A stretch of DNA of 64,000 nucleotides, taken from Oceanithermus desulfurans. Lineage in GTDB: Bacteria; Deinococcota; Deinococci; Deinococcales; Marinithermaceae. The notes under the pieces were generated by a model. The model made no database searches. It was not told where the DNA came from and worked only from the letters and a program-made list of their open reading frames with translations. Shown here in pieces: positions 43,198 through 63,977 of this stretch; positions within the stretch are counted from its first letter, which is position 1, and each line of letters opens with the position of its first letter. The translations under genes and the position numbers were made by a program. The stretch is taken from positions 14,640 to 78,639 of the forward strand of contig NZ_JACHEZ010000010.1 of assembly GCF_014201675.1 (NCBI RefSeq). Reading direction: 5' to 3'.

Positions 43198-43228
43198 AAA
43201 ATGAGGCAAGAGCGTCGGGATAATAAAC

Positions 43229-43302
43229 GCCTGTGGCCTGTAGCCTGTGGCCTGTGGAGATCCACGCGCGCAACCACGTGCTACAAGCCACAAGCTACAG
43301 GC
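43229..43302. repeat. Palindromic REP/MITE-like element: arms GCCTGTGGCCTGTAGCCTGTGGCCTGTGG and CTACAAGCCACAAGCTACAGGC around a 23-nt spacer
   Basis: About 19 of 22 arm positions can pair. The same CCACAGGC/TACAGGC motif family recurs at 49241-49401 and 49795-49823. Confidence 0.65.
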
Positions 43303-43313
43303 TGCCTTTAGCC

Positions 43314-47812: not shown

Positions 47813-49222
47813 ATGACGATGAAGACGAAACCCGTGGTCAAGACCCTGCTCGCCGATCTGGAAACGCCGGTGACCGCCTACCTGAAGCTGGCCGAGAAAG
47901 CGCCGGTAAGTTTCCTGCTCGAGTCGGTGGAGGCGGGCAAGCGCTGGAGCCGCTACTCGATCATCGGCGTCGGGGCCAGGCGCACCTTCCGGCTGAGGGA
48001 CGGCGCCTTCACCATCGACGGCACCGAGGTAAAGGCCGAGGACCCGCTGGCCACGCTCTACCACGCGGTGCATCGCGAGGTGGAAAACGGTCACGAGCTG
48101 CCGCCCTTCTGGGGCGGGGCGGTGGGCTACGTGGCCTACGACCTGGTGCGCTACTACGAAGAGCTGCCCGACGCCAACCCCGACGAGATCGGCGCGCCCG
48201 ACCTGCTCTTCGTCGAGCCCGAACTGGTGGTGGTCTTCGACCACCTGAAGCAGGTGCTGCACCTCGTGGCCCCGGCGCTGGGCGACGGCCCCTCGGCCGC
48301 CGCCCGCGCCCGGGAGCTGCTGGACGCCGCCGAGCGCAGGCTGCGGGGGCCGCTGCCGGGGGTGCCGGGCGGGCGCGGCGGGCGCAAGACCGCGTTCCGC
48401 GCTAACCTGAGCCCTGCGGACTACGCCCGCATCGTCGAAAAAAGCAAGGAGTACATCCGCGCCGGCGACATCTTCCAGGTGGTGCCCTCGGTGCGCTTCA
48501 CCGCCGAGCTGGGGGTGCACCCCTTCGCCCTCTACCGGGCGCTCAGGAGCGTCAACCCCAGCCCCTACATGGGCTACCTTGACCTGGGCGAGGTGACGCT
48601 CGTCTCGGCCAGCCCCGAGAGCCTGCTGCGCGCCGAAGGCCGCCGCGTGACCACCCGCCCCATCGCCGGCACCCGGCCGCGCGGGGCTACGCCCGAGGAG
48701 GACCGGGCGCTGGCCGAGGAGCTGCTGGCCGACGAGAAGGAGCGCGCCGAGCACGTGATGCTGGTGGACCTGAGCCGCAACGACCTCGGCCGGGTGGCCA
48801 AGCACGGAAGCGTTCGGGTGGAGGAGTTGATGCGGGTGGAGCATTACTCACACGTCATGCACATCGTCAGCACCGTGACCGGGGAGCTGGAAGAGGGCAA
48901 GACGCCGCTCGACGCGCTGGCGAGCGTGATTCCGATGGGCACGGTCAGCGGCGCGCCCAAGATTCGGGCGATGGAGATCATCGACGAACTCGAGCCCACC
49001 CGCCGCGGCCCCTACGGCGGCGCCTTCGGCTACATCGCCTACGACGGCGCCATGGACGTGGCGCTGACGCTGCGCACCTTCGTGATCGCCGGCGGCAAAG
49101 TGCACGTCCAGGCGGGGGCCGGCGTGGTGGCCGACAGCGACCCCGAGCGCGAGTACCAGGAGTGCGTGAACAAGGCGAAGGCGTTGATGAGAGCAGTCGA
49201 ATTGGCAGAGAAGGGGTTGTGA
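47813..49222 (+). CDS. trpE: Anthranilate synthase component I
   Basis: 'LLESVEAGKRWSRYS', 'GDIFQVVPS', 'SPESLLR...TRPIAGTRPRG', 'GAVGYIAYDGAMD'; 468 aa. Confidence 0.92.
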   Translation: MTMKTKPVVKTLLADLETPVTAYLKLAEKAPVSFLLESVEAGKRWSRYSIIGVGARRTFRLRDGAFTIDGTEVKAEDPLATLYHAVHREVENGHELPPFWGGAVGYVAYDLVRYYEELPDANPDEIGAPDLLFVEPELVVVFDHLKQVLHLVAPALGDGPSAAARARELLDAAERRLRGPLPGVPGGRGGRKTAFRANLSPADYARIVEKSKEYIRAGDIFQVVPSVRFTAELGVHPFALYRALRSVNPSPYMGYLDLGEVTLVSASPESLLRAEGRRVTTRPIAGTRPRGATPEEDRALAEELLADEKERAEHVMLVDLSRNDLGRVAKHGSVRVEELMRVEHYSHVMHIVSTVTGELEEGKTPLDALASVIPMGTVSGAPKIRAMEIIDELEPTRRGPYGGAFGYIAYDGAMDVALTLRTFVIAGGKVHVQAGAGVVADSDPEREYQECVNKAKALMRAVELAEKGL

Positions 49223-49240
49223 GGGTGGAAAGACGAATTA

Positions 49241-49401
49241 GCCTGTGGCTTGTAGCTTGTAGCTTGTGGAAAAACCATTCGATCAATCCCACAGGCTACG
49301 GGCCCCTGGCCACGGGCTCTTCTCGCTTGCGGCTTGTGACTCGTGGCTTGTGGAAAAACCATCCAATCGAGTCCGCAGACTACAAGCCACAGGCTACGGG
49401 C
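49241..49401. repeat. Two tandem copies (about 85 bp each) of the palindromic repeat family: GCYTGTRGCTYGTGG...CTTGTGGAAAAACCATYCRATC...CCRCAGRCTACRRGCCACAGGCTACGGGC
   Basis: Degenerate direct repeats with internal inverted symmetry, lying between trpE and the four-helix-bundle gene. Not exact, so not a CRISPR array. Confidence 0.6.
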
Positions 49402-49420
49402 CGTCCGTGGAGGTGTTTGA

Positions 49421-49783
49421 ATGCCTGAAAGCGTCGAAAACCTTCGCATCTGGCAGGAAGGTATGCAACTGGCCAAAGACATTTACCGGGCCTCGAGTTC
49501 CTGGCCCAAAGAAGAGGTTTATGGCTTAACTACCCAGGTGCGCCGGGCCGTTGTTTCCATTCCCGCCAACCTGGCCGAGGGCGTCGGCCGCGGCACGGCC
49601 GCCGAGCTTTCACGGTATTCGCGGATTGCACTGGGAAGCGCTTACGAATTGGGTACGCTGCTTAGGCTCGCGCGCGATTTTGGCTACTTGGCGCATGCAA
49701 ACTTCGAGGAACTGAACGTGCGCGTTTCGTCCCTTGCCAAGCAAATCTCCGCCTTCATCTCCTACCAGGAGGGCCGCAAATGA
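49421..49783 (+). CDS. Four-helix-bundle protein (23S rRNA intervening-sequence protein / Avd-like, TIGR02436 family)
   Basis: 120 aa. 'NLRIWQEGMQLAKDIYRASSSWPKEEVYGLTTQVRRAVVSIPANLAEGVGRGTAAE' is the family signature. Lies inside the trp operon; its stop overlaps the annotated trpG ATG. Confidence 0.75.
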   Translation: MPESVENLRIWQEGMQLAKDIYRASSSWPKEEVYGLTTQVRRAVVSIPANLAEGVGRGTAAELSRYSRIALGSAYELGTLLRLARDFGYLAHANFEELNVRVSSLAKQISAFISYQEGRK

Positions 49784-50475
49784 AAGGCAAGAAACCACAG
49801 GCCACAGGCCACGAGCTACAGGCTGAAGAGGTGCCCCCCACCTCCCACCCCCTATCCCCCGCCCCCCACCTCCTGCTCATCGACAACTACGACTCCTTCA
49901 CCTACAACCTCGCCGACTACCTGGGTCAGCTGGGGGCGCGGCTGACCGTCTGGCGCAACGACAAGTTCGCGCTCGAGGACGTGGAGCGGCTGGCCCCCGA
50001 CGCCGTGGTCATCTCGCCGGGACCGGGCACGCCCGAGGAGGCGGGGCTCTCGATCCCGCTCGTCCGGGAGTACGCCCCCAGGCTACCCATCCTCGGCGTC
50101 TGCCTGGGCCACCAGGCCATCGGCGCCGCCTTCGGCGCGAAGGTGGTGCCGGCACCGCGCATCATGCACGGCAAGACCAGCCCCATCGAGCACTCGGGGC
50201 AGGGCATCTTCATGGGGCTGCCCAACCCCTTCACCGCCACCCGCTACCACTCGCTGGTCATCGACGATCTGCCCGGCAAGCTCGAGGTGCTGGCCTGGAC
50301 GCCCGAGGAAGGGCAGCAGACCGTGCAGGCGGTGCGCCACGTGCGCTTCCCCACGGTCGGCGTGCAGTTCCACCCCGAGAGCATTCTCACCGAGCTGGGG
50401 CTGCAGCTCTTGGCCAACTGGCTCGGCGAGGTCGGGCTGTTCTGGAAGACCCACCCACGGGAGGAGGAGCAATGA
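49780..50475 (+). CDS. trpG: Anthranilate synthase component II (glutamine amidotransferase); true start possibly GTG at 49831
   Basis: 'LLLIDNYDSFTYNL', 'SPGPGTP', 'LGVCLGHQAI', 'HPES' are class-I GATase motifs. Confidence 0.9.
   Translation: MKGKKPQATGHELQAEEVPPTSHPLSPAPHLLLIDNYDSFTYNLADYLGQLGARLTVWRNDKFALEDVERLAPDAVVISPGPGTPEEAGLSIPLVREYAPRLPILGVCLGHQAIGAAFGAKVVPAPRIMHGKTSPIEHSGQGIFMGLPNPFTATRYHSLVIDDLPGKLEVLAWTPEEGQQTVQAVRHVRFPTVGVQFHPESILTELGLQLLANWLGEVGLFWKTHPREEEQ
49795..49823. repeat. Partial copy of the repeat (CCACAGGCCACAGGCCACGAGCTACAGGC) overlapping the annotated 5' end of trpG
   Basis: Same motif family. It encodes the 'KPQATGHELQAE' N-terminal extension if the ATG at 49780 is used. 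Confidence 0.55.
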
Positions 50476-54613: not shown

Positions 54614-56557
<1,944 letters not shown>

Positions 56558-56670
56558 CCTGAGCGCGCGGCACCCAGTTCGCGGTGCGTGGTACGGGCGG
56601 GCCTTGGCCCGCCCGAAACCTTTCGCGCCAGTCTTGCGAAACCAAGAGCACGCGCCCGGCCTGATTTACA

Positions 56671-58242
56671 ATGGGGGCCAAAGCAGTCGCGAAAGGACGG
56701 TGTTCCGTGGAAGGTCGCCCTTTATTGCTGCCCCTGCTCGACGAGGCCCTGAAGCGCCGGGGCTGGCTCGAGCCCGCGGACGTCGAGGCCGCCGCCCGTG
56801 AGGCGCGCGTGCCCCTGGCCCAGGCGTGGGAAGCGGTGCGCTTCTACCCCCGCTACCGCACCCAACCCCCCGAGAAGCGGCTCCTGCTGGTGGACGACCC
56901 GGTGGTCCGCGCCCGCGACTTCGCCCGGCTCTGGGCCGAACTGGAGGACGCCGCCCCGCGCGCGGAGGCGCGCGCCGGCACGGTCTACAGCCAGGGGCTG
57001 GAGGCCGTGGGGCCGGCGCTGGTGATCGAAGAGGGAGCCCGCTGGCGCGTCTTCGCCCCGGTGCAGGTCGCCGACCTACGGGCGCTGGCCGTGGGCAAGC
57101 TGCCCCCGAACGAGCTGGAAACCCTGCCCGCCGAGCTGGCCCGGAATGACGGCGTTCTCTTCGAGGCGCCGGACCCGCTCCCCGAGTTTCCCGGGGCCGA
57201 CGCCCTCATCGCCGCCGTGCGCGACGCGGGCCTCAGGGGGCTGGGCGGCGCGCTCTTCCCCACCTGGCGCAAGCTCGAGGCCGTGCGCAGTGCGGCCGGC
57301 GCAAAGTACGTGGTCGTGAACGGCGACGAGTCCGAGCCCGGCAACTTCAAGGACCGCTGGCTGATGGAGCACAACCCCCGCCTGGTCTGGGCGGGGGCGG
57401 CGCTGGCCGCGCGCGCGGTGGGCGCGCGCACGGTCTACTTCTACGTGCGCGGCGAATACCCCGCCGCGCTCGAGCGCGTGGAGGCGGCGCGGACGGCGCT
57501 GGAGGGCGAGGGCTACTTCGAGGGCCTCGCGACGCACACCTTCCGCGGCGGCGGCCTCTACGTCTGCGGCGAGGAGAGCGCTTTGCTCGAGAGCCTCGAG
57601 GGGCGCCGCGCCGAGCCGCGGCTCAAGCCGCCCTACCCGGCCGAGTCGGGCCTGTTCGGCCGGCCCACGCTGGTCAATAACGTGGAGACGCTGGCGCACC
57701 TGGCCTGGATCGCCGCCCACGGCGCAGAGGCCTACCGCGAGCGGCGGCCCAAGCTGTTTTCGATCTCGGGCGACGTGGACCGGCCCGGGGTCTACGAGCT
57801 GGCGCTCGGTACCCCGCTGGCGGAGGCCCTGGAGGCGGCCGGCGGCCGCCCGGACGAGCTGCAGGCGGTGCTGATGGGCGGGGCCGCGGGCACCTTCCTC
57901 AGGCTGCCCGACGCCGCCGAGCTGCCGCTCGACTTCGAAGCCCCGAAGCTCTCGGGCGACGCGGTGGGGCCGGGGGCGCTCGTGGCCTTCGGCGCCGACC
58001 GCGACCTCTGGGCGGTGGCCGAGGGCATCGCCGCCTTCTTCGCCCACGAGTCGTGCGGCAAATGCTTTCCCTGCAGCCTGGGCACCCCCCACCTGCACGC
58101 GGCCGTGGCCCGGCGCGAGCGGGGTCCGCAGCTGGAAGAGCTCTTTTTGGCGCTCGAGCAGGGCAGCCTCTGCGGGCTGGGGCAGGCCGCCCCCTGGGCG
58201 GTCCGCAGCCTGATCCGGCGTTTCGGGGGGGTGAGGACGTGA
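56671..58242 (+). CDS. fdsB: NAD-dependent formate dehydrogenase beta subunit-like protein: NuoF-like FMN/4Fe-4S domain with a NuoE-like N-terminal domain lacking the 2Fe-2S cysteines
   Basis: 'GGALFPTWRKLE', 'VVVNGDESEPGNFKDR', 'ESCGKCFPCSLGT' (NuoF 4Fe-4S). The N-terminal 150 aa are thioredoxin-like but have only one Cys. Confidence 0.75.
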   Translation: MGAKAVAKGRCSVEGRPLLLPLLDEALKRRGWLEPADVEAAAREARVPLAQAWEAVRFYPRYRTQPPEKRLLLVDDPVVRARDFARLWAELEDAAPRAEARAGTVYSQGLEAVGPALVIEEGARWRVFAPVQVADLRALAVGKLPPNELETLPAELARNDGVLFEAPDPLPEFPGADALIAAVRDAGLRGLGGALFPTWRKLEAVRSAAGAKYVVVNGDESEPGNFKDRWLMEHNPRLVWAGAALAARAVGARTVYFYVRGEYPAALERVEAARTALEGEGYFEGLATHTFRGGGLYVCGEESALLESLEGRRAEPRLKPPYPAESGLFGRPTLVNNVETLAHLAWIAAHGAEAYRERRPKLFSISGDVDRPGVYELALGTPLAEALEAAGGRPDELQAVLMGGAAGTFLRLPDAAELPLDFEAPKLSGDAVGPGALVAFGADRDLWAVAEGIAAFFAHESCGKCFPCSLGTPHLHAAVARRERGPQLEELFLALEQGSLCGLGQAAPWAVRSLIRRFGGVRT

Positions 58243-58892
58243 GCAAGGTACCGCTCGTCATCGACGGCTACCTGGTCCAGGCCGAGCCCGGCGAGACGCT
58301 GCTCGACGCTGCGCGCCGCGCCGGGGTGGAGGTGCCCACGCTCTGCCACCACGAGCAGAGCGGCACCCGCGGCCTCTGCCGGCTGTGCGTCGTCGAGGTG
58401 GAGGGCTGGGGCCGGCCGGTGCCCGCCTGCGCCACCGAGGTGCAGCCGAACCTGGTGGTGCGCACCGAGACCGCGGCGCTCGCCGACCTGCGGCGGGTGG
58501 TGCTCGAGCTGCTGGCGCACGAGACCGACCTGAGCCTCGACACGGGCACCCAGGCCCTCCTGGAGCGCTACCACGCCCGCCCCGAGCGCTGGGGGGCGCC
58601 GCTGGCCGCGCGGCGCGAACGCGAACCCGTGCAGGACAACCCCTTCTTCGTGCGCGACTACGCCAAGTGCTACACCTGCCGGCGCTGCATCGACGCCTGC
58701 GGCGAGGGCGTCCAGGGCCTCTGGGCCTACGCCACGACCGGCCGCGGCCACGCCGCGGTGCCCGGCACCCCGCTGGACCTGCCGCTGCCCGAGACGCCCT
58801 GCGTCTTCTGCGGCAACTGCGTGCAGGTCTGCCCCACGGGGGCGCTGGTGCCGCTTGCCGAACTGGCCGCAGCCGAAGGAGGAGACGCATGA
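58239..58892 (+). CDS. fdsA: Formate dehydrogenase alpha subunit, N-terminal Fe-S domain (2Fe-2S + 4Fe-4S ferredoxin, NuoG-like), separate ORF
   Basis: GTG start overlapping the fdsB stop. 'CHHEQSGTRGLCRLCVVEV' and 'CYTCRRCIDAC...CVFCGNCVQVCPTGAL'. Confidence 0.7.
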   Translation: MSKVPLVIDGYLVQAEPGETLLDAARRAGVEVPTLCHHEQSGTRGLCRLCVVEVEGWGRPVPACATEVQPNLVVRTETAALADLRRVVLELLAHETDLSLDTGTQALLERYHARPERWGAPLAARREREPVQDNPFFVRDYAKCYTCRRCIDACGEGVQGLWAYATTGRGHAAVPGTPLDLPLPETPCVFCGNCVQVCPTGALVPLAELAAAEGGDA

Positions 58893-58913
58893 AACCGCTC
58901 GCGTGCTGGACAC

Positions 58914-58983
58914 GGGAAGTGGGGTGTGGGAAGTGGGGTGTGGGAAGCCTGTGCCTACCTCCCACCTCCCACCTCCCACCTCC
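58914..58983. repeat. G-rich tandem repeat (GGGAAGTGGGGTGT x2 + GGGAAG) facing a C-rich repeat (CCTCCCA x4) in the 107-nt spacer that splits fdsA
   Basis: Read directly. The two halves are partially complementary (hairpin or G4/i-motif potential). The spacer length shifts the frame by +2. Confidence 0.6.
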
Positions 58984-58998
58984 GAGCCGGAGGCACCC

Positions 58999-61119
58999 AT
59001 GATCCCCCTCCGCGTCCAACCCGACCGGGTGGTGCCCACCGTCTGCCCCTACTGCGGGGTCGGCTGCCGGGTGGACCTCTACGTCAAGGACGCGCGCATC
59101 TACCGGGTGATGGCCCGCGAGGAACCCCCGAACCACGGGGCGCTCTGCGTCAAGGGGCGGTTCGGACTGGGTTTCCTGCACCACCCCGACCGCCTGAAGA
59201 CCCCGCTCATCCGCCGCCGCAAGGGGGCCGAGCTCGAGCCCGTCTCCTGGGACGAGGCCCTCGACTTCGCCGCCGCCCGCCTCGCCCGCATCGCCGACGC
59301 GTCGGGCCCCGACGCCCTCTTCTTCGTCTCCAGTGCCAAGGCCAGCAACGAGGAAAACTACCTGATGCAAAAGCTGGCCCGCGCCGCGGTGGGCACCCAC
59401 AACGTCGACCACTGCGCCCGGCTCTGCCACTCCAGCTCCACCGCCGCGCTCTCGCGCTCGCTGGGCTCGGCGGCGATGAGCAACACCCTCGAGGAGATCG
59501 GGCTCTCCGACGTGATCCTCGTCACCGGGTCCAACACCACCGAGACCCACCCGGTGGTGGGCGCGATGATCAAGAAGGCCGCGCGCAACGGTGCCTTCCT
59601 GATCGTCGCCGACCCGCGGCGCATCGGCCTCGCCGAAGCCGCGCATTTGTGGCTGCGGCTCCGCCCCGGCAGCGACGCGGTGCTCTTCGGCGCGATGGCC
59701 CGCTACCTGGTCGAGTCGGGCCGCTTCGACCGCGCCTTCGTGGAACGGCGCACCGAGGGGTTCGACGCCTGGTGGGAAAGCGTCAGGGACTACACCCTCG
59801 AGTTCGCCGAAGGGGTCACCGGCGTGCCCGCGGCGCGCATTCGCGAGGCCGCCGAGCGCTACGCCGGCGCCCGCGCCGCCGCGATCTACTGGGCCATGGG
59901 CATCACCCAGCACAGCCACGGCACCGACAACGCCCAGGCCCTCATCAACCTGGCCCTGATCGCCGGGCAGCTGGGCAAGCCCGGCGCCGGGCTCAACCCG
60001 CTGCGCGGCCAGAACAACGTCCAGGGCGCGGGCGACATGGGGGCCTTGCCCAACGTCTACCCGGGCTACCAACCCGCCGCCGACCGGCAGGTGCAAAAGC
60101 GCTGGAAGGCGCTGTGGCACACCCCCCAGCCCGAGACCCCGGGCCGCACCATGACCGAGGCCTTCGAGTCGATCGGCGCCAAGGACGGGGTGCGCGGGGT
60201 CTACCTGATGGGCGAGGACCCCATCACCTCCGAGCCCTACCAGGATCACGTGCGCGCCGCGCTCGAGAAGCTGGACCTGCTGATCGTGCAGGACATCCTG
60301 AAGAACGAGACCTTCCCCTACGCCGACGTGGTGTTGCCCGCGGCCTCCTTTGCCGAAAAGCAGGGCACTTTCACCAACACCGACCGGCGGGTGCAGCGCA
60401 TCCGGCCCGTCTTCGAGCCGCCGGGCGAGGCGCGCCCGGACTGGTGGATCACCGCCCAGCTGGGGCGGCGGCTCGCCGCGCGGACGGGCCGGGGCTGGAC
60501 CGAGGGCTGGAACTACGCCGGCCCCGAGGCGGTGTGGGAGGAGATCCGGCTGGCGCTGCCACGGATGTTCGGCGGCATCGACTACGCCCGGCTCGAGCGC
60601 GAACCCCTGCGCTGGCCCTGCCCCCACGAGCGCTCGCCGGGCGTGAGCGTGCTCTTCACCGACCGCTTCTACACGCCAAGCGGCAAGGCGCGGCTGCTGC
60701 CCGCCGTTTGGCGGCCGCCGGCCGAACGGCCGGGCGGCGACTACCCGCTCGTCCTCTCCACCGGCCGCGTCCTCTACCACTGGCACGGCGGCACCCTGAG
60801 CCGCCGTAGCGACCTGGAGCGGGCCTACCCGAAGATGAAGGTGGAGGTCCACCCCGCCGACGCCGAACGCTACGGAATCTCCGACGGCGAGCCGGTCTGG
60901 GTGGTGAGCCGCCGCGGCCGCATCCAGGCGACCGCCTGGGTCACCGACCGCACCCCCGAGGGCGTCGTCTTCGCCCCCTTCCACTTCGCCGAGCAGCCCG
61001 CCAACCGGCTCACCCTCGACGCCTACGACCCCACCTCGAAGATCCCCGAGTACAAGTTCGCGGCGGTCCGGCTCGAGCCCGCGGGACACGAGGCCCCGAA
61101 GCCCGCGGGGCCGGGGTAG
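58999..61119 (+). CDS. fdsA: Formate dehydrogenase alpha subunit, molybdopterin (Mo-bisPGD) catalytic domain, Cys-type
   Basis: 'VCPYCGVGC' 4Fe-4S of MopB enzymes, 'RLCHSSSTAALS' Cys-His active-site pair, and C-terminal 'EPVWVVSRRGRI' (molybdopterin dinucleotide-binding); 706 aa. Confidence 0.85.
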   Translation: MIPLRVQPDRVVPTVCPYCGVGCRVDLYVKDARIYRVMAREEPPNHGALCVKGRFGLGFLHHPDRLKTPLIRRRKGAELEPVSWDEALDFAAARLARIADASGPDALFFVSSAKASNEENYLMQKLARAAVGTHNVDHCARLCHSSSTAALSRSLGSAAMSNTLEEIGLSDVILVTGSNTTETHPVVGAMIKKAARNGAFLIVADPRRIGLAEAAHLWLRLRPGSDAVLFGAMARYLVESGRFDRAFVERRTEGFDAWWESVRDYTLEFAEGVTGVPAARIREAAERYAGARAAAIYWAMGITQHSHGTDNAQALINLALIAGQLGKPGAGLNPLRGQNNVQGAGDMGALPNVYPGYQPAADRQVQKRWKALWHTPQPETPGRTMTEAFESIGAKDGVRGVYLMGEDPITSEPYQDHVRAALEKLDLLIVQDILKNETFPYADVVLPAASFAEKQGTFTNTDRRVQRIRPVFEPPGEARPDWWITAQLGRRLAARTGRGWTEGWNYAGPEAVWEEIRLALPRMFGGIDYARLEREPLRWPCPHERSPGVSVLFTDRFYTPSGKARLLPAVWRPPAERPGGDYPLVLSTGRVLYHWHGGTLSRRSDLERAYPKMKVEVHPADAERYGISDGEPVWVVSRRGRIQATAWVTDRTPEGVVFAPFHFAEQPANRLTLDAYDPTSKIPEYKFAAVRLEPAGHEAPKPAGPG

Positions 61120-61134
61120 TAGAATGCGGAGCGT

Positions 61135-61947
61135 ATGTTAGCCATCGACCTATCGGGCAAGAAGGCGCTGGTCATGGGCGTGGCCAACGAACGCTCCATC
61201 GCCTTCGCCACCGCCCAAAAACTCCACGAGGCCGGCGCTGAGCTGGCCATCACCTATCAAGGCGACCGCGTGCGCCCTCTGGTGGAAAAGGCCACGCGGC
61301 ACATGCCCAACATTCGCCTCTACGAACTCGACGTGACCGACGAGGCCCGCCTGAAGGAGGTCATGGCCGACCTGGGCGAGAGCTGGGGCGGCATCGACTA
61401 CATCGTCCACTCCATCGCCTTCGCGCCCCGCCGCGCCATGGAGGGCCGCTACATCGAGACGACCAAGGAAGACTGGCTGCTGGCCATGGAGATCTCCGCC
61501 TACAGCCTGGTGGCGGTCGCCCGCGAGGCCGAGCCCTACTGGAACGAGGGCGGCAGCATGGTCACCTTCAGCTACTACGCCGCCGAGAAGGTGGTGCCCA
61601 AGTACAACGTCATGGGCATCGCCAAGAGCGCGCTCGAGGCCAGCGTGCGCATGCTCGCCTACGAGCTGGGCCCGGGGGGGCGGCGGGTCAACGCCGTCTC
61701 CGCGGGGGCGCTGCGCACCCTTTCGGCGCGCGGCATCCCCGGGTTCACCCTGCTGTGGGACCACGTCAACGCCGTCGCGCCGCTTAAGCGCCCCGTAACC
61801 CACGAGGAGGTGGCCCAGGCGAGCGTCTTCCTGCTCAGCCCGCTGGCCAGCGGTGTCACCGGCGAGACGCTCTACGTGGACGCCGGGTACCACATCGTGG
61901 GCATCGGCCTCGCCGACGAGCACGTCCCCGGCAACCGCAAGGACTGA
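61135..61947 (+). CDS. fabI: Enoyl-[acyl-carrier-protein] reductase (NADH)
   Basis: 'KALVMGVANERSIAFA', 'SYYAAEKVVPKYNVMGIAKSALEASVRMLA' (FabI Y-x6-K), 'GIDYIVHSIAF'. Confidence 0.92.
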   Translation: MLAIDLSGKKALVMGVANERSIAFATAQKLHEAGAELAITYQGDRVRPLVEKATRHMPNIRLYELDVTDEARLKEVMADLGESWGGIDYIVHSIAFAPRRAMEGRYIETTKEDWLLAMEISAYSLVAVAREAEPYWNEGGSMVTFSYYAAEKVVPKYNVMGIAKSALEASVRMLAYELGPGGRRVNAVSAGALRTLSARGIPGFTLLWDHVNAVAPLKRPVTHEEVAQASVFLLSPLASGVTGETLYVDAGYHIVGIGLADEHVPGNRKD

Positions 61948-63255: not shown

Positions 63256-63977
63256 CTACCCGTCCTTCCGGGCGAGCGGCCACCCGGCCCCGAGGCCCCG
63301 GATCCAGTCCGGGGCAGATTCGGAATCTTGACGTGCCACGAAATCCGTCCTTCCGGACGAGGGGGCCACGCGGCCCCCGAGATCCAGAATCTTAAAGTGC
63401 GCCGCTAAGGGACCGGTGACTCGCAATGCGGACGGTGACGACAGCCCGTCGGTTCCTTCGTAACCCGCAGCCACGACAAGATCCCCGATCCCGGCGCTTT
63501 GCGCCTCGTCGGGGATGACGAAATAAGGGGCTAGGGGATGTAAGGGGTGGGGTGTAGGGGACGAATAAGGCGGAGGAAACCAAGGAGGCGCGCAAGCACC
63601 GGGTCTTCGCGGCTTTGGGACGGCGAAGAAAAGGCTGGCGGGCTTGCAGCCGCTGCCTGTTGGCCCTGCCGCTCTTCTCTCCAGCTCCTGTACGCTTGCC
63701 GCCCACCATCTACCAAATACTACGTACCTCGTACCACGTACCGCCGTCATCCGTCATTCCGGGCGAGCCGACCCCTGGGTTGGCGAGACCCGGAATCTAA
63801 ATAGTTGCGGATGCGATGTCGGTCACTTGATGAATGGAAGGTGACGACGGCGCCGGTTCGTTTTGGCGTACGTAGCCACGACAAGATCCCCGATCTCGAC
63901 GCTTCGCGCCGCGTCGGGGATGACGAACAATAGGGCGGGTGGTCGGTCACGGCATGGACCCCGGCTCGCGGGCGCAA
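63256..63977. repeat. Repeat-rich non-coding region: two about 95-bp 'B' repeats (63436-63531, 63841-63940; GTGACGACRGC..AGCCACGACAAGATCCCCGATC..CGTCGGGGATGACGAA) and three degenerate 'A' repeats (63261, 63347, 63752; CGTCmTTCCGGGCGAG..GGCC..CGGAATCT)
   Basis: Direct comparison of the sequence; each B unit contains a conserved 8-bp-stem hairpin ATCCCCGA...TCGGGGAT. The only ORFs present are short high-GC artefacts. Confidence 0.6.

Follow-up and report, generated by a model that had tools for sequence, protein, structure and literature searches.

A heptamer-repeat hairpin between two formate dehydrogenase subunit genes of Oceanithermus and a candidate relay reading frame across it

Formate dehydrogenases of the FdsABG type, such as those of Rhodobacter capsulatus (FdsA, 6TG9 and 6TGA) and Methylorubrum (FoDH1, 7E5Z), carry their Fe-S and molybdenum-bis(pyranopterin guanine dinucleotide) (Mo-bisPGD) modules on a single chain, with a NuoF-like subunit adjoining. 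In the HylABC-FdhF2 enzyme of Gottschalkia acidurici (PMC6085437) and in FdhF of the hydrogen-dependent CO2 reductase (HDCR, 7QV7), the catalytic subunit is separate from a NuoG/HydA-like Fe-S protein. Here, we analysed a formate dehydrogenase (fdh) operon of Oceanithermus desulfurans in which the modules follow the FdsABG order but are encoded as two polypeptides, with a hairpin of two inverted heptamer arrays between their genes. The operon lies in a stretch of 64,000 nucleotides (contig NZ_JACHEZ010000010.1, positions 14,640 to 78,639), called the window in the following, and all coordinates are those of the window unless an L number, our label for a compared locus, precedes them.

Intergenic heptamer arrays have been described in several phyla. 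The short tandemly repeated repetitive (STRR) sequences of cyanobacteria include a hairpin between hupS and hupL (PMC2670836), and TAACTGA repeats occur in Beggiatoaceae (PMC4679880). The hupS-hupL hairpin resembles the fdh spacer in that both are short arrays of 7-nt units, lie between co-transcribed oxidoreductase subunit genes and are capable of forming a hairpin. They differ in the phylum (here Deinococcota, 69% GC) and in the heptamers, and a bridging open reading frame (ORF) and the replacement of one heptamer type by another at an orthologous site are documented here. The G-rich heptamers of Xanthomonas (GGGAATC) and Nostoc (GGGGAYT) prefer four units and lie between aligned ORFs, with 70-75 convergent pairs per Xanthomonas genome (Rehm et al. 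2015, PMC4692102). In common with the Oceanithermus arrays they are G-rich, have about four units, lie between co-directional ORFs and vary in length and sequence at conserved sites. They have one dominant heptamer per genome, whereas Oceanithermus has at least three unrelated types and its potential for G-quadruplexes (G4s) is not conserved.

Repetitive extragenic palindromic (REP) sequences and bacterial interspersed mosaic elements (BIMEs) are intercistronic palindromes of enterobacterial operons, and termination-reinitiation coupling at ATGA junctions is known. REPs are fixed-sequence families mobilised by REP-associated tyrosine transposases (RAYTs), whereas neither a fixed-sequence REP family nor a RAYT gene was seen here. 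We know of no description of a relay ORF through an inserted hairpin for REPs. A further relevant group is the intervening sequences (IVSs) of 23S rRNA, which carry an ORF for a four-helix-bundle protein also in Leptospira and Salmonella. To our knowledge, STRR-class hairpins have been unexplained since 1990 and the four-helix-bundle S23p or IVS proteins since 1993.

The genes of the fdh operon and the features of the junction are the following.

56671-58242, forward strand: gene of the NuoE/NuoF-like FMN/NAD(H) subunit (Pfam Complex1_51K, NADH_4Fe-4S, SLBB and 2Fe-2S_thioredx)
58239-58892, forward strand: ORF1, stand-alone Fe-S subunit of 217 aa, GTG start, TGA at 58890-58892, assigned by Pfam
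58889-59002, forward strand: bridging small ORF of 37 codons (MKPLACWTREVGCGKWGVGSLCLPPTSHLPPPSRRHP), ATG on the ORF1 stop (ATGA), TGA at 59000-59002 on the ORF2 ATG (ATGA)
58893-58998, forward strand: intercistronic spacer of 106 nt, missing in Thermus (L010) and in L012, present in Oceanithermus relatives
58914-58947, forward strand: G-rich arm, heptamers GGGAAGT and GGGGTGT alternating (Tandem Repeats Finder, TRF, score 68)
58957-58983, forward strand: C-rich arm, 3.9 copies of the heptamer ACCTCCC (TRF score 54, 100% matches)
58979-58993, forward strand: predicted mini-hairpin CCTCCG-AGC-CGGAGG, in which the last repeat unit pairs with the ORF2 Shine-Dalgarno (SD) sequence
58999-61119, forward strand: ORF2, complete Mo/W-bisPGD formate dehydrogenase catalytic subunit of 706 aa, ATG start, assigned by Pfam and TIGR01591

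The enzyme itself is ordinary. From its predicted products, the locus is an ordinary three-gene NAD-linked formate dehydrogenase operon with a NuoE/F-like, a 217-aa Fe-S and a 706-aa catalytic subunit. The NuoE/F-like gene matches the NCBIfam model nuoF_fam below the family cut-off, and its TGA is shared with the GTG start of ORF1 as GTGA. ORF1 contains Fer2_4 and a 4Fe-4S dicluster domain and corresponds to a NuoG-N-terminal or HoxU-like module with 2Fe-2S and 4Fe-4S clusters. It equals HoxU of the NAD-reducing hydrogenases (5XF9_B) in size and domain content, but scores 131.7 bits against the HoxU equivalog, below the cut-off of 333. HylA is HydA-like and much larger than ORF1, and we identified no separate HylC or other bifurcation partner here. 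The ORF1 protein is identical to GEM90815.1, MBB6030891.1 and WP_147148902.1 of O. desulfurans, where it is named '2Fe-2S iron-sulfur cluster-binding protein'.

ORF2 contains the Pfam domains Molybdop_Fe4S4, Molybdopterin and Molydop_binding and is identical to GEM90814.1 and MBB6030892.1. It reaches 794.6 bits with the Fdh-alpha equivalog TIGR01591 (cut-off 666.25) and covers profile positions 1-671 of 672. Its translation contains the motif DHCARLCHSS, the putative equivalent of the active-site residues U140-H141 of FdhH. The closest solved structure is FdhF of the HDCR complex (7qv7_S), which is likewise a stand-alone subunit. On the single chain of R. capsulatus FdsA (6tg9_A), ORF1 matches residues 25-241 and ORF2 residues 249-932, which places the cut between them at a domain boundary. 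The ORF1, ORF2, GyrB and FabI proteins were each found exactly in two O. desulfurans assemblies.

The initial annotation had proposed an alpha subunit that is split by the repeat spacer. The single-chain FdsA architecture is indeed not found here, and the stop of ORF1 at 58892 and the restart of ORF2 at 58999 in another frame are read directly from the sequence. The spacer is 106 nt long and not 107 nt as first counted, and the frame change is +1 (760 mod 3 = 1), which is the same as -2, and not +2. The comparison with orthologues, which had been named beforehand as the refuting test, returned the same split with no repeat. In Thermus amyloliquefaciens (L010) the two genes are 1 nt apart (...GGAGGTGTAGCGTG...), and in the metagenomic relative L012, which is 61% identical, they overlap by 4 nt as ATGA. 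The split was thus not caused by the repeat, and ORF2 alone passes TIGR01591.

The separate genes are also widespread. The 120 best ORF1 homologues are all separate proteins of 195-306 aa, from Thermus, Oceanithermus, Caldinitratiruptor, Anaerolineae and Armatimonadota, and the two genes are separate in the complete genome of Oceanithermus profundus and in all close relatives. The junction was further surveyed in 80 metagenomic loci with 40-97% identity. The ORF1 stop is followed by the catalytic gene in about 60 of them, within a few tens of nucleotides in roughly 45 and behind a longer spacer in about 15. Full fusion was seen in 3 loci, 6 are split instead after the Molybdop_Fe4S4 domain, and in 9 the contig carries no informative junction. 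The genuine gene split, one of the options first listed, is therefore the one borne out by relatives and by several phyla. Almost certainly, the two-gene form is ancestral and the separate Fe-S and catalytic genes predate the repeat. In the ancestor, an overlap or a gap of 1 nt coupled the two genes in translation. Since Thermales and several other phyla normally have two genes, split FdsA-type genes should not be marked in annotations as pseudogenes or frameshifts.

The opposite view is a single fdsA that was disrupted, either as a pseudogene, by a sequencing slip, or with frameshifting or hopping to a protein of about 920 aa. FdsA of R. capsulatus and its relatives are single chains of about 958 aa, and in O. 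desulfurans the ORF2 frame is open back to 58855. Against this, both genes are intact and conserved, and the same stop and restart occur in two assemblies, in the complete genome of O. profundus and in many metagenomes, in addition to the repeat-free splits of Thermus and L012. The independent metagenome assemblies L001 and L134 have the same junction, with 1 substitution in the 106 nt of the spacer (99% identity between the window and L134) that is synonymous in the bridging small ORF. A sequencing or assembly slip is excluded, because independent assemblies reproduce the junction. No obvious slippery site was noticed on reading through 58855-58892, where no systematic search was made. Recoding to a fused protein was considered and rejected: an ORF2 frame without a stop in the spacer is limited to type A and part of type B (types defined below), and a stop inside the spacer closes it in the 94-nt variants, the 124-nt variants and one 97-nt variant (L138, L136, L005, L139, L002, L214, L216 and L217). 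Programmed recoding is unlikely for this reason, and the disrupted fdsA as a whole can practically be dismissed.

We then considered the spacer itself, which in the comparison of these loci is an insertion specific to the Oceanithermus lineage. The G-rich repeats face CCTCCCA-type repeats and are partly complementary to them, as had been noted. In the G-rich arm, the 14-mer GGGAAGTGGGGTGT is present in 2.4 copies at 58914-58947 with 100% matches (TRF). The arms of the inverted repeat, at 58915-58944 and 58954-58983, are 30 nt each and 77% complementary, and the 9-nt loop between them holds no four-helix-bundle ORF. The spacer RNA is predicted to fold with -54.2 kcal/mol (z = -2.25; 3 of 200 shuffles fold as well), and the predicted hairpin holds at 60 °C with -33.8 kcal/mol. 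Directly downstream, the ORF2 SD sequence GGAGG at 58989-58993, 5 nt before the ATG, is included in the mini-hairpin, which has a predicted energy of -9.2 kcal/mol at 37 °C and -5.0 kcal/mol at 60 °C. An analogous anti-SD/SD stem is predicted in L005 and a weaker one in L002. A scan of 56400-61400 for promoters and terminators showed nothing promoter-like or terminator-like in 58893-58998, and an Rfam search of the whole window at the gathering threshold gave no match, rRNA included.

The opening bases of the spacer (ATGAAACCGCTCGCGTGC) are similar to the ORF2 starts of the window (ATGATCCCCCTCCGCGTCC) and of L012 (ATGAACCGACCC), in a match that is short and GC-biased. Likewise, the first codons of the small ORF (MKPL) are similar to those of ORF2 (MIPL), which may hint at a duplicated junction or a target-site duplication. 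The copies of the spacer element have inverted arms and differ in their heptamer sequence, and no transposase was seen.

The bridging ORF connects the two old genes. Its ATG at 58889 is the remnant of the old coupled start, with the old SD sequence GGAGG 6 nt upstream, and its 37 codons cross the entire hairpin without an internal stop. It is unannotated in public records. Our reading of the junction, to which we give a probability of about 0.5, is that a heptamer hairpin was inserted into a coupled two-gene junction and that ribosome passage was preserved by a relay ORF. A hairpin of two inverted heptamer arrays would have been inserted just 3′ of the old ATGA junction. Ribosomes that have finished the Fe-S gene would restart at the old start codon on its stop and would then read the ORF of 33-43 codons through the hairpin. 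Their translation would melt the hairpin and the small stem that masks the SD sequence of the catalytic gene. They would terminate at the TGA on the catalytic-gene ATG and reinitiate there. The insertion would be tolerated because the relay ORF keeps the original coupling of the two subunits. For the mechanism itself, judged from the reading frames, we put the odds of its operating slightly short of even. The spacer can be regarded as a natural experiment, in which a structured repeat has moved formerly overlapping, coupled genes apart by 94-124 nt. If true, the relay shows how operons absorb structured insertions without losing the subunit stoichiometry.

The relay reading draws mainly on the relatives. 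A hairpin is present at the ORF1/ORF2 junction in all Oceanithermus-like lineages, where it occurs in three unrelated sequence types.

Type A, 106 nt, GGGAAGT and GGGGTGT facing ACCTCCC: the window, L001 and L134
Type B, 94 or 97 nt, GGGAGGT facing CCCCACA-like units: L007, L135, L138, L214, L216 and O. profundus DSM 14977 (L217)
Type C, 124 nt, GTGGTAC facing CACCACG: L002, L005, L136, L137 and L139

The comparison of the relay ORF covered thirteen loci with four spacer lengths and at least three unrelated heptamer contents. Every spacer variant examined has an ATG or GTG start on the ORF1 stop, a TGA on the ORF2 ATG and no internal stop, which results in bridging ORFs of 33, 34, 37 or 43 codons. 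The lengths of 94, 97, 106 and 124 nt are all 1 mod 3, including the 3-nt difference within type B. Codon 2 of ORF2 begins with A in all variants and encodes I, T or S. The sequence of the predicted bridging peptide is unconserved outside the flanks, whereas the frame and the end points are kept. Spacers of different types cannot be aligned with each other (45-63% when a global alignment is forced). Spacers of the same type are conserved as much as the coding flanks or more; between L136 and L005, the 124-nt spacers are 96% identical and the genes 77-80%. In a neighbour-joining tree of ORF2, which is rough and made from identity distances, the spacer types are not clades. Type C accounts for the deepest branch as well as for two branches in the crown, type A falls among the type C lineages, and the repeat-free L012 groups with a type-B lineage. 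The simplest reading of this tree would be repeated replacement or loss at one site.

Similar arrangements were found at other places in the window, with the following features.

43229-43303, forward strand: second hairpin locus, four copies of GCCTGTR facing GCYACAR, between two co-directional genes (-50 kcal/mol, z = -4.0)
49237-49874, forward strand: element between trpE and trpG with a gene for a four-helix-bundle protein of 120 aa (23S rRNA IVS protein family) at 49421-49783
49237-49272, 49325-49353, 49792-49824 and 49834-49874: heptamer arrays that bracket the four-helix-bundle gene

The second hairpin is crossed by a 36-codon ORF at 43201-43311, which begins 3 nt past the stop of the upstream gene and ends 2 nt short of the next ATG. 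Across the two hairpins upstream of the four-helix-bundle gene runs a 69-codon ORF (49219-49428) whose GTG start shares a GTGA with the trpE stop and whose end lies 8 nt within the following gene. Between the four-helix-bundle gene and trpG (49780-49875), the trpG frame extends upstream through the C-rich arrays to an ATG on the preceding stop (ATGA). With 102 nt in O. desulfurans and 84 nt in O. profundus (L217:2197-2280), this extension is in frame in both. The arrays upstream of trpG would be either a translated N-terminal tail of TrpG or a relay. The arrays of the trpG extension also concern L137:1-40, and their length and content vary between species.

Distant, lower-GC relatives of the split enzyme with 40-45% identity have palindromic or heptamer-like inverted repeats at the same Fe-S/catalytic junction (L174, L175, L181, L184, L186, L187, L190, L192, L193, L200, L203 and L204). 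Examples are TGGTAAA/TTACCAA, GTGTCAA/TTGACAC and AAGTCAA/TTGACTT, and others have a widespread palindrome of the GTCATTGCGAGCGRAGCGAAGCAATC type. Hairpins seem to have landed at this junction repeatedly. In the repeat-free relative L012, there is an intergenic run of about 30 G at L012:6291-6335, which may be an assembly artefact or a homopolymer tract.

Several points weigh against the relay. Three independent frame-preserving length changes have a probability of 1/27, and three or four such changes give P of about 0.01-0.04. The frame of the small ORF stays open in 25-68% of dinucleotide shuffles at 69% GC, and the other frames of the spacer are likewise nearly stop-free. The good SD sequence of ORF2 could allow independent initiation. 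The 124-nt variants fold with z-scores of -1.25 and -0.64 against dinucleotide shuffles, which is not significant. In the palindromic spacers of L181 and L190, stop triplets were seen by eye with the frames uncounted; if they are in frame, the relay ORF is not general for such insertions. Finally, the likeness of the fdh spacer arms to those of the four-helix-bundle cassette (see below) may partly be due to common heptamer units and not to descent.

Some of these points are also arguments for a different explanation, in which the hairpin is a neutral or selfish insertion without a role, ORF2 is translated from its own strong SD sequence and the bridging ORF arises incidentally from GC-rich repeats with few stops. 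The openness of the shuffled frames and the stop triplets in unrelated palindromes at the junction elsewhere agree with this, as do the hypervariability of the arrays in close relatives and their occurrence at many intergenic sites and in many phyla. A neutral insertion does not explain that all four lengths are 1 mod 3 and that the NTGA/ATGA ends are kept across unrelated repeats, nor that the frame is also kept at the junction of the four-helix-bundle gene and trpG. The identity of the 124-nt spacers, well above that of their genes, is also unexpected for neutral DNA. We regard the neutral insertion as possible but rather doubtful.

The fdh spacer very probably belongs to a fast-evolving class of heptamer-array hairpins, a class that is already known and whose function is unexplained in the literature cited. 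The arrays have the properties of the STRR type: a 7-nt unit (3.9 copies; 2.4 copies of the 14-mer), many intergenic sites, variable copy number and stem-loop pairing. In the window, 7 period-7 arrays lie at 4-5 sites, all outside the genes identified. Apart from the fdh spacer these sites are 43229-43303, 49237-49400 (two hairpins), 49792-49874 and 63715-63745, and the other intergenic arrays fold with z = -4.0, -4.1 and -2.65. With up to 2 mismatches, CCTCCCACCTCCCA is found 6 times in the window where 1.15 matches are expected, a count that none of 100 shuffles reached. When one genome per species was scanned for three copies of ACCTCCC, at least 120 stretches were found, in Chloroflexota, Gemmatimonadota, Planctomycetota, Verrucomicrobiota, Cyanobacteria, Patescibacteria and others. 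Among the matches listed, the arrays often adjoin other heptamer types, and a complementary array lies upstream in about 16 of 99. Most ACCTCCC arrays are thus solitary and the hairpin form is a subset. The first 50,000 positions of the O. profundus plasmid pOCEPR01 (L133, 1-50000) contain essentially no heptamer arrays, against about one locus per 15 kb in the window. This agrees with Xanthomonas and Nostoc, whose plasmids are without their G-rich heptamer repeats (PMC4692102).

Both a hairpin and a G4 potential had been suggested for the spacer at the outset. The hairpin is borne out by folding. For the second possibility, the G-rich arm would form a G4 and the C-rich arm an i-motif and act as a switch in DNA or mRNA. 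The sense strand at 58914-58938 has a canonical motif (four runs of G3+ with N1-7 between them), and for Xanthomonas and Nostoc, G4 formation by the G-rich heptamers has been observed in vitro, with four units preferred (PMC4692102). Yet the motif is one of 14 in the 64-kb window, and the hairpin is retained at 37 and 60 °C when the folding allows for G4s. The motif is also not conserved: it is on the sense strand in type A only, on the antisense strand only in the 94- and 97-nt spacers, and on neither strand in the 124-nt spacers. The window heptamers GCCTGTR and TACCACG cannot form G4s, because they have no runs of three G. A G4 switch is therefore very improbable, although the motif itself is present in type A.

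The arms of the fdh spacer have counterparts around the four-helix-bundle gene. The four-helix-bundle protein of the window scores 108 bits with TIGR02436 (cut-off 24) and belongs to the Pfam 23S_rRNA_IVP family (PF05635). The arrays on the two sides of its gene are complementary, with a joined fold of -47.9 kcal/mol. In O. profundus, the orthologous gene (L217:1766-2275) sits between GGGAGGT and ACCTCCC-type arrays. There, the arms of the fdh spacer match the flanks of the four-helix-bundle gene over 28 of 34 nt on the left and 28 of 31 nt on the right, including non-repeat bases (CAGGATGT...) and the order of variant units. Because of this match, the fdh spacer looks like a copy without the gene. 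Probably, as the arm sequences suggest, it is a gene-less relative of an IVS-type cassette.

The association of such genes with heptamer arrays was also found outside Oceanithermus. Among the ACCTCCC matches listed, six loci have a four-helix-bundle homologue (L018, L020, L041, L049, L063 and L093), within tens of nucleotides of the array in 5 of the 6; the sixth (L018) has complementary flanking arrays, as read by eye. Energies from RNAduplex on 160-nt gene flanks are inflated and were not used as a statistic. In an unbiased sample of plasmid-borne homologues (among L219-L226), 7 of 8 genes are bracketed by heptamer-type arrays, six of them inverted and one mainly direct. The inverted arms are those of Geminocystis, Picosynechococcus (cmr2-X-cmr3), Riemerella, Gemmatirosa, Nostoc and Azospirillum. 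Around the Pseudanabaena gene (cas6-X-cas4), most of the array sequence is in direct orientation, and a short inverted array lies farther upstream. The Azospirillum case (L222) is a genuine 23S rRNA IVS (Rfam LSU, 708 bits), and its stem heptamers adjoin the ORF. Array-bracketed four-helix-bundle genes occur in Deinococcota, Cyanobacteria, Bacteroidota, Gemmatimonadota, Chloroflexota, Verrucomicrobiota and Pseudomonadota. Members of this gene family have been reported as insertions between cas genes (PMC3936711), and in the IVS of Coxiella, GACAGAT heptamers lie beside the S23p ORF, vary in number between strains and are cut by RNase III at the first repeat (PMC4990558). In the literature, we found no paper that generalises heptamer arrays as flanks of four-helix-bundle genes. 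The fdh element and the 23S IVSs with an S23p ORF have the long terminal inverted-repeat stem in common, and heptamers adjoin the ORF in Coxiella and in L222. They differ in that the fdh element belongs to an mRNA operon, with a protein-coding gene on either side, and not to helix 25 or 45 of 23S rRNA, and has no four-helix-bundle ORF.

By analogy to the 23S IVS, RNase III might cut the hairpin duplex, separate the two cistrons and alter the stability or translation of the half-transcripts, which is compatible with a relay ORF. Such processing agrees with the match between the O. profundus spacer and the arms around the IVS-protein gene, with the presence of the same architecture in a true 23S IVS and with the cut at the first heptamer in Coxiella. 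The stem of about 30 bp is predicted to be stable at 60 °C, and for the hupS-hupL hairpin a role in transcript stability or coupling has been proposed (PMC2670836). On the other hand, the stems are 77% complementary with mismatches and bulges, and processing alone leaves the kept reading frame and the ATGA ends unexplained. We consider RNase III processing unlikely.

More tentatively still than the relay ORF, the heptamer hairpins and the four-helix-bundle IVS proteins could be one element, of which the fdh spacer is a gene-less copy, and the operon insertions of Oceanithermus would persist only with a relay ORF. The full form may consist of a protein gene in the loop of a stem of inverted heptamer arrays, which inserts into rRNA helices and between operon genes. 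Together, the one-element and relay readings would account for a spacer length that stays 1 mod 3 while the heptamers swap between lineages. This combined reading is speculative and we hold it to be improbable rather than probable. The association of four-helix-bundle genes with heptamer arrays may matter more than the relay, because it is a testable link between two long-unexplained features of bacterial genomes. The features that deserve attention are the frame-preserving relay ORF across unrelated repeats and the apparent kinship to IVS elements.

Two further places near the operon carry heptamer arrays. The 3′ flank of gyrB has a remnant in the window (56558-56670) and GTGGTAC or GGTAGGT arrays of 39-72 nt in relatives that are 81-97% identical in ORF1 (compared at L001:1248-1415, L002:1168-1355, L137:5276-5343 and L139:6234-6305). 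A conserved GGGCGGGCC...GGCCCGCCC stem that resembles the gyrB terminator follows directly downstream of these arrays. Downstream of moeA (63715-63745; L139:13470-14200), several hundred nucleotides are packed with several heptamer types, mostly past the end of the window.

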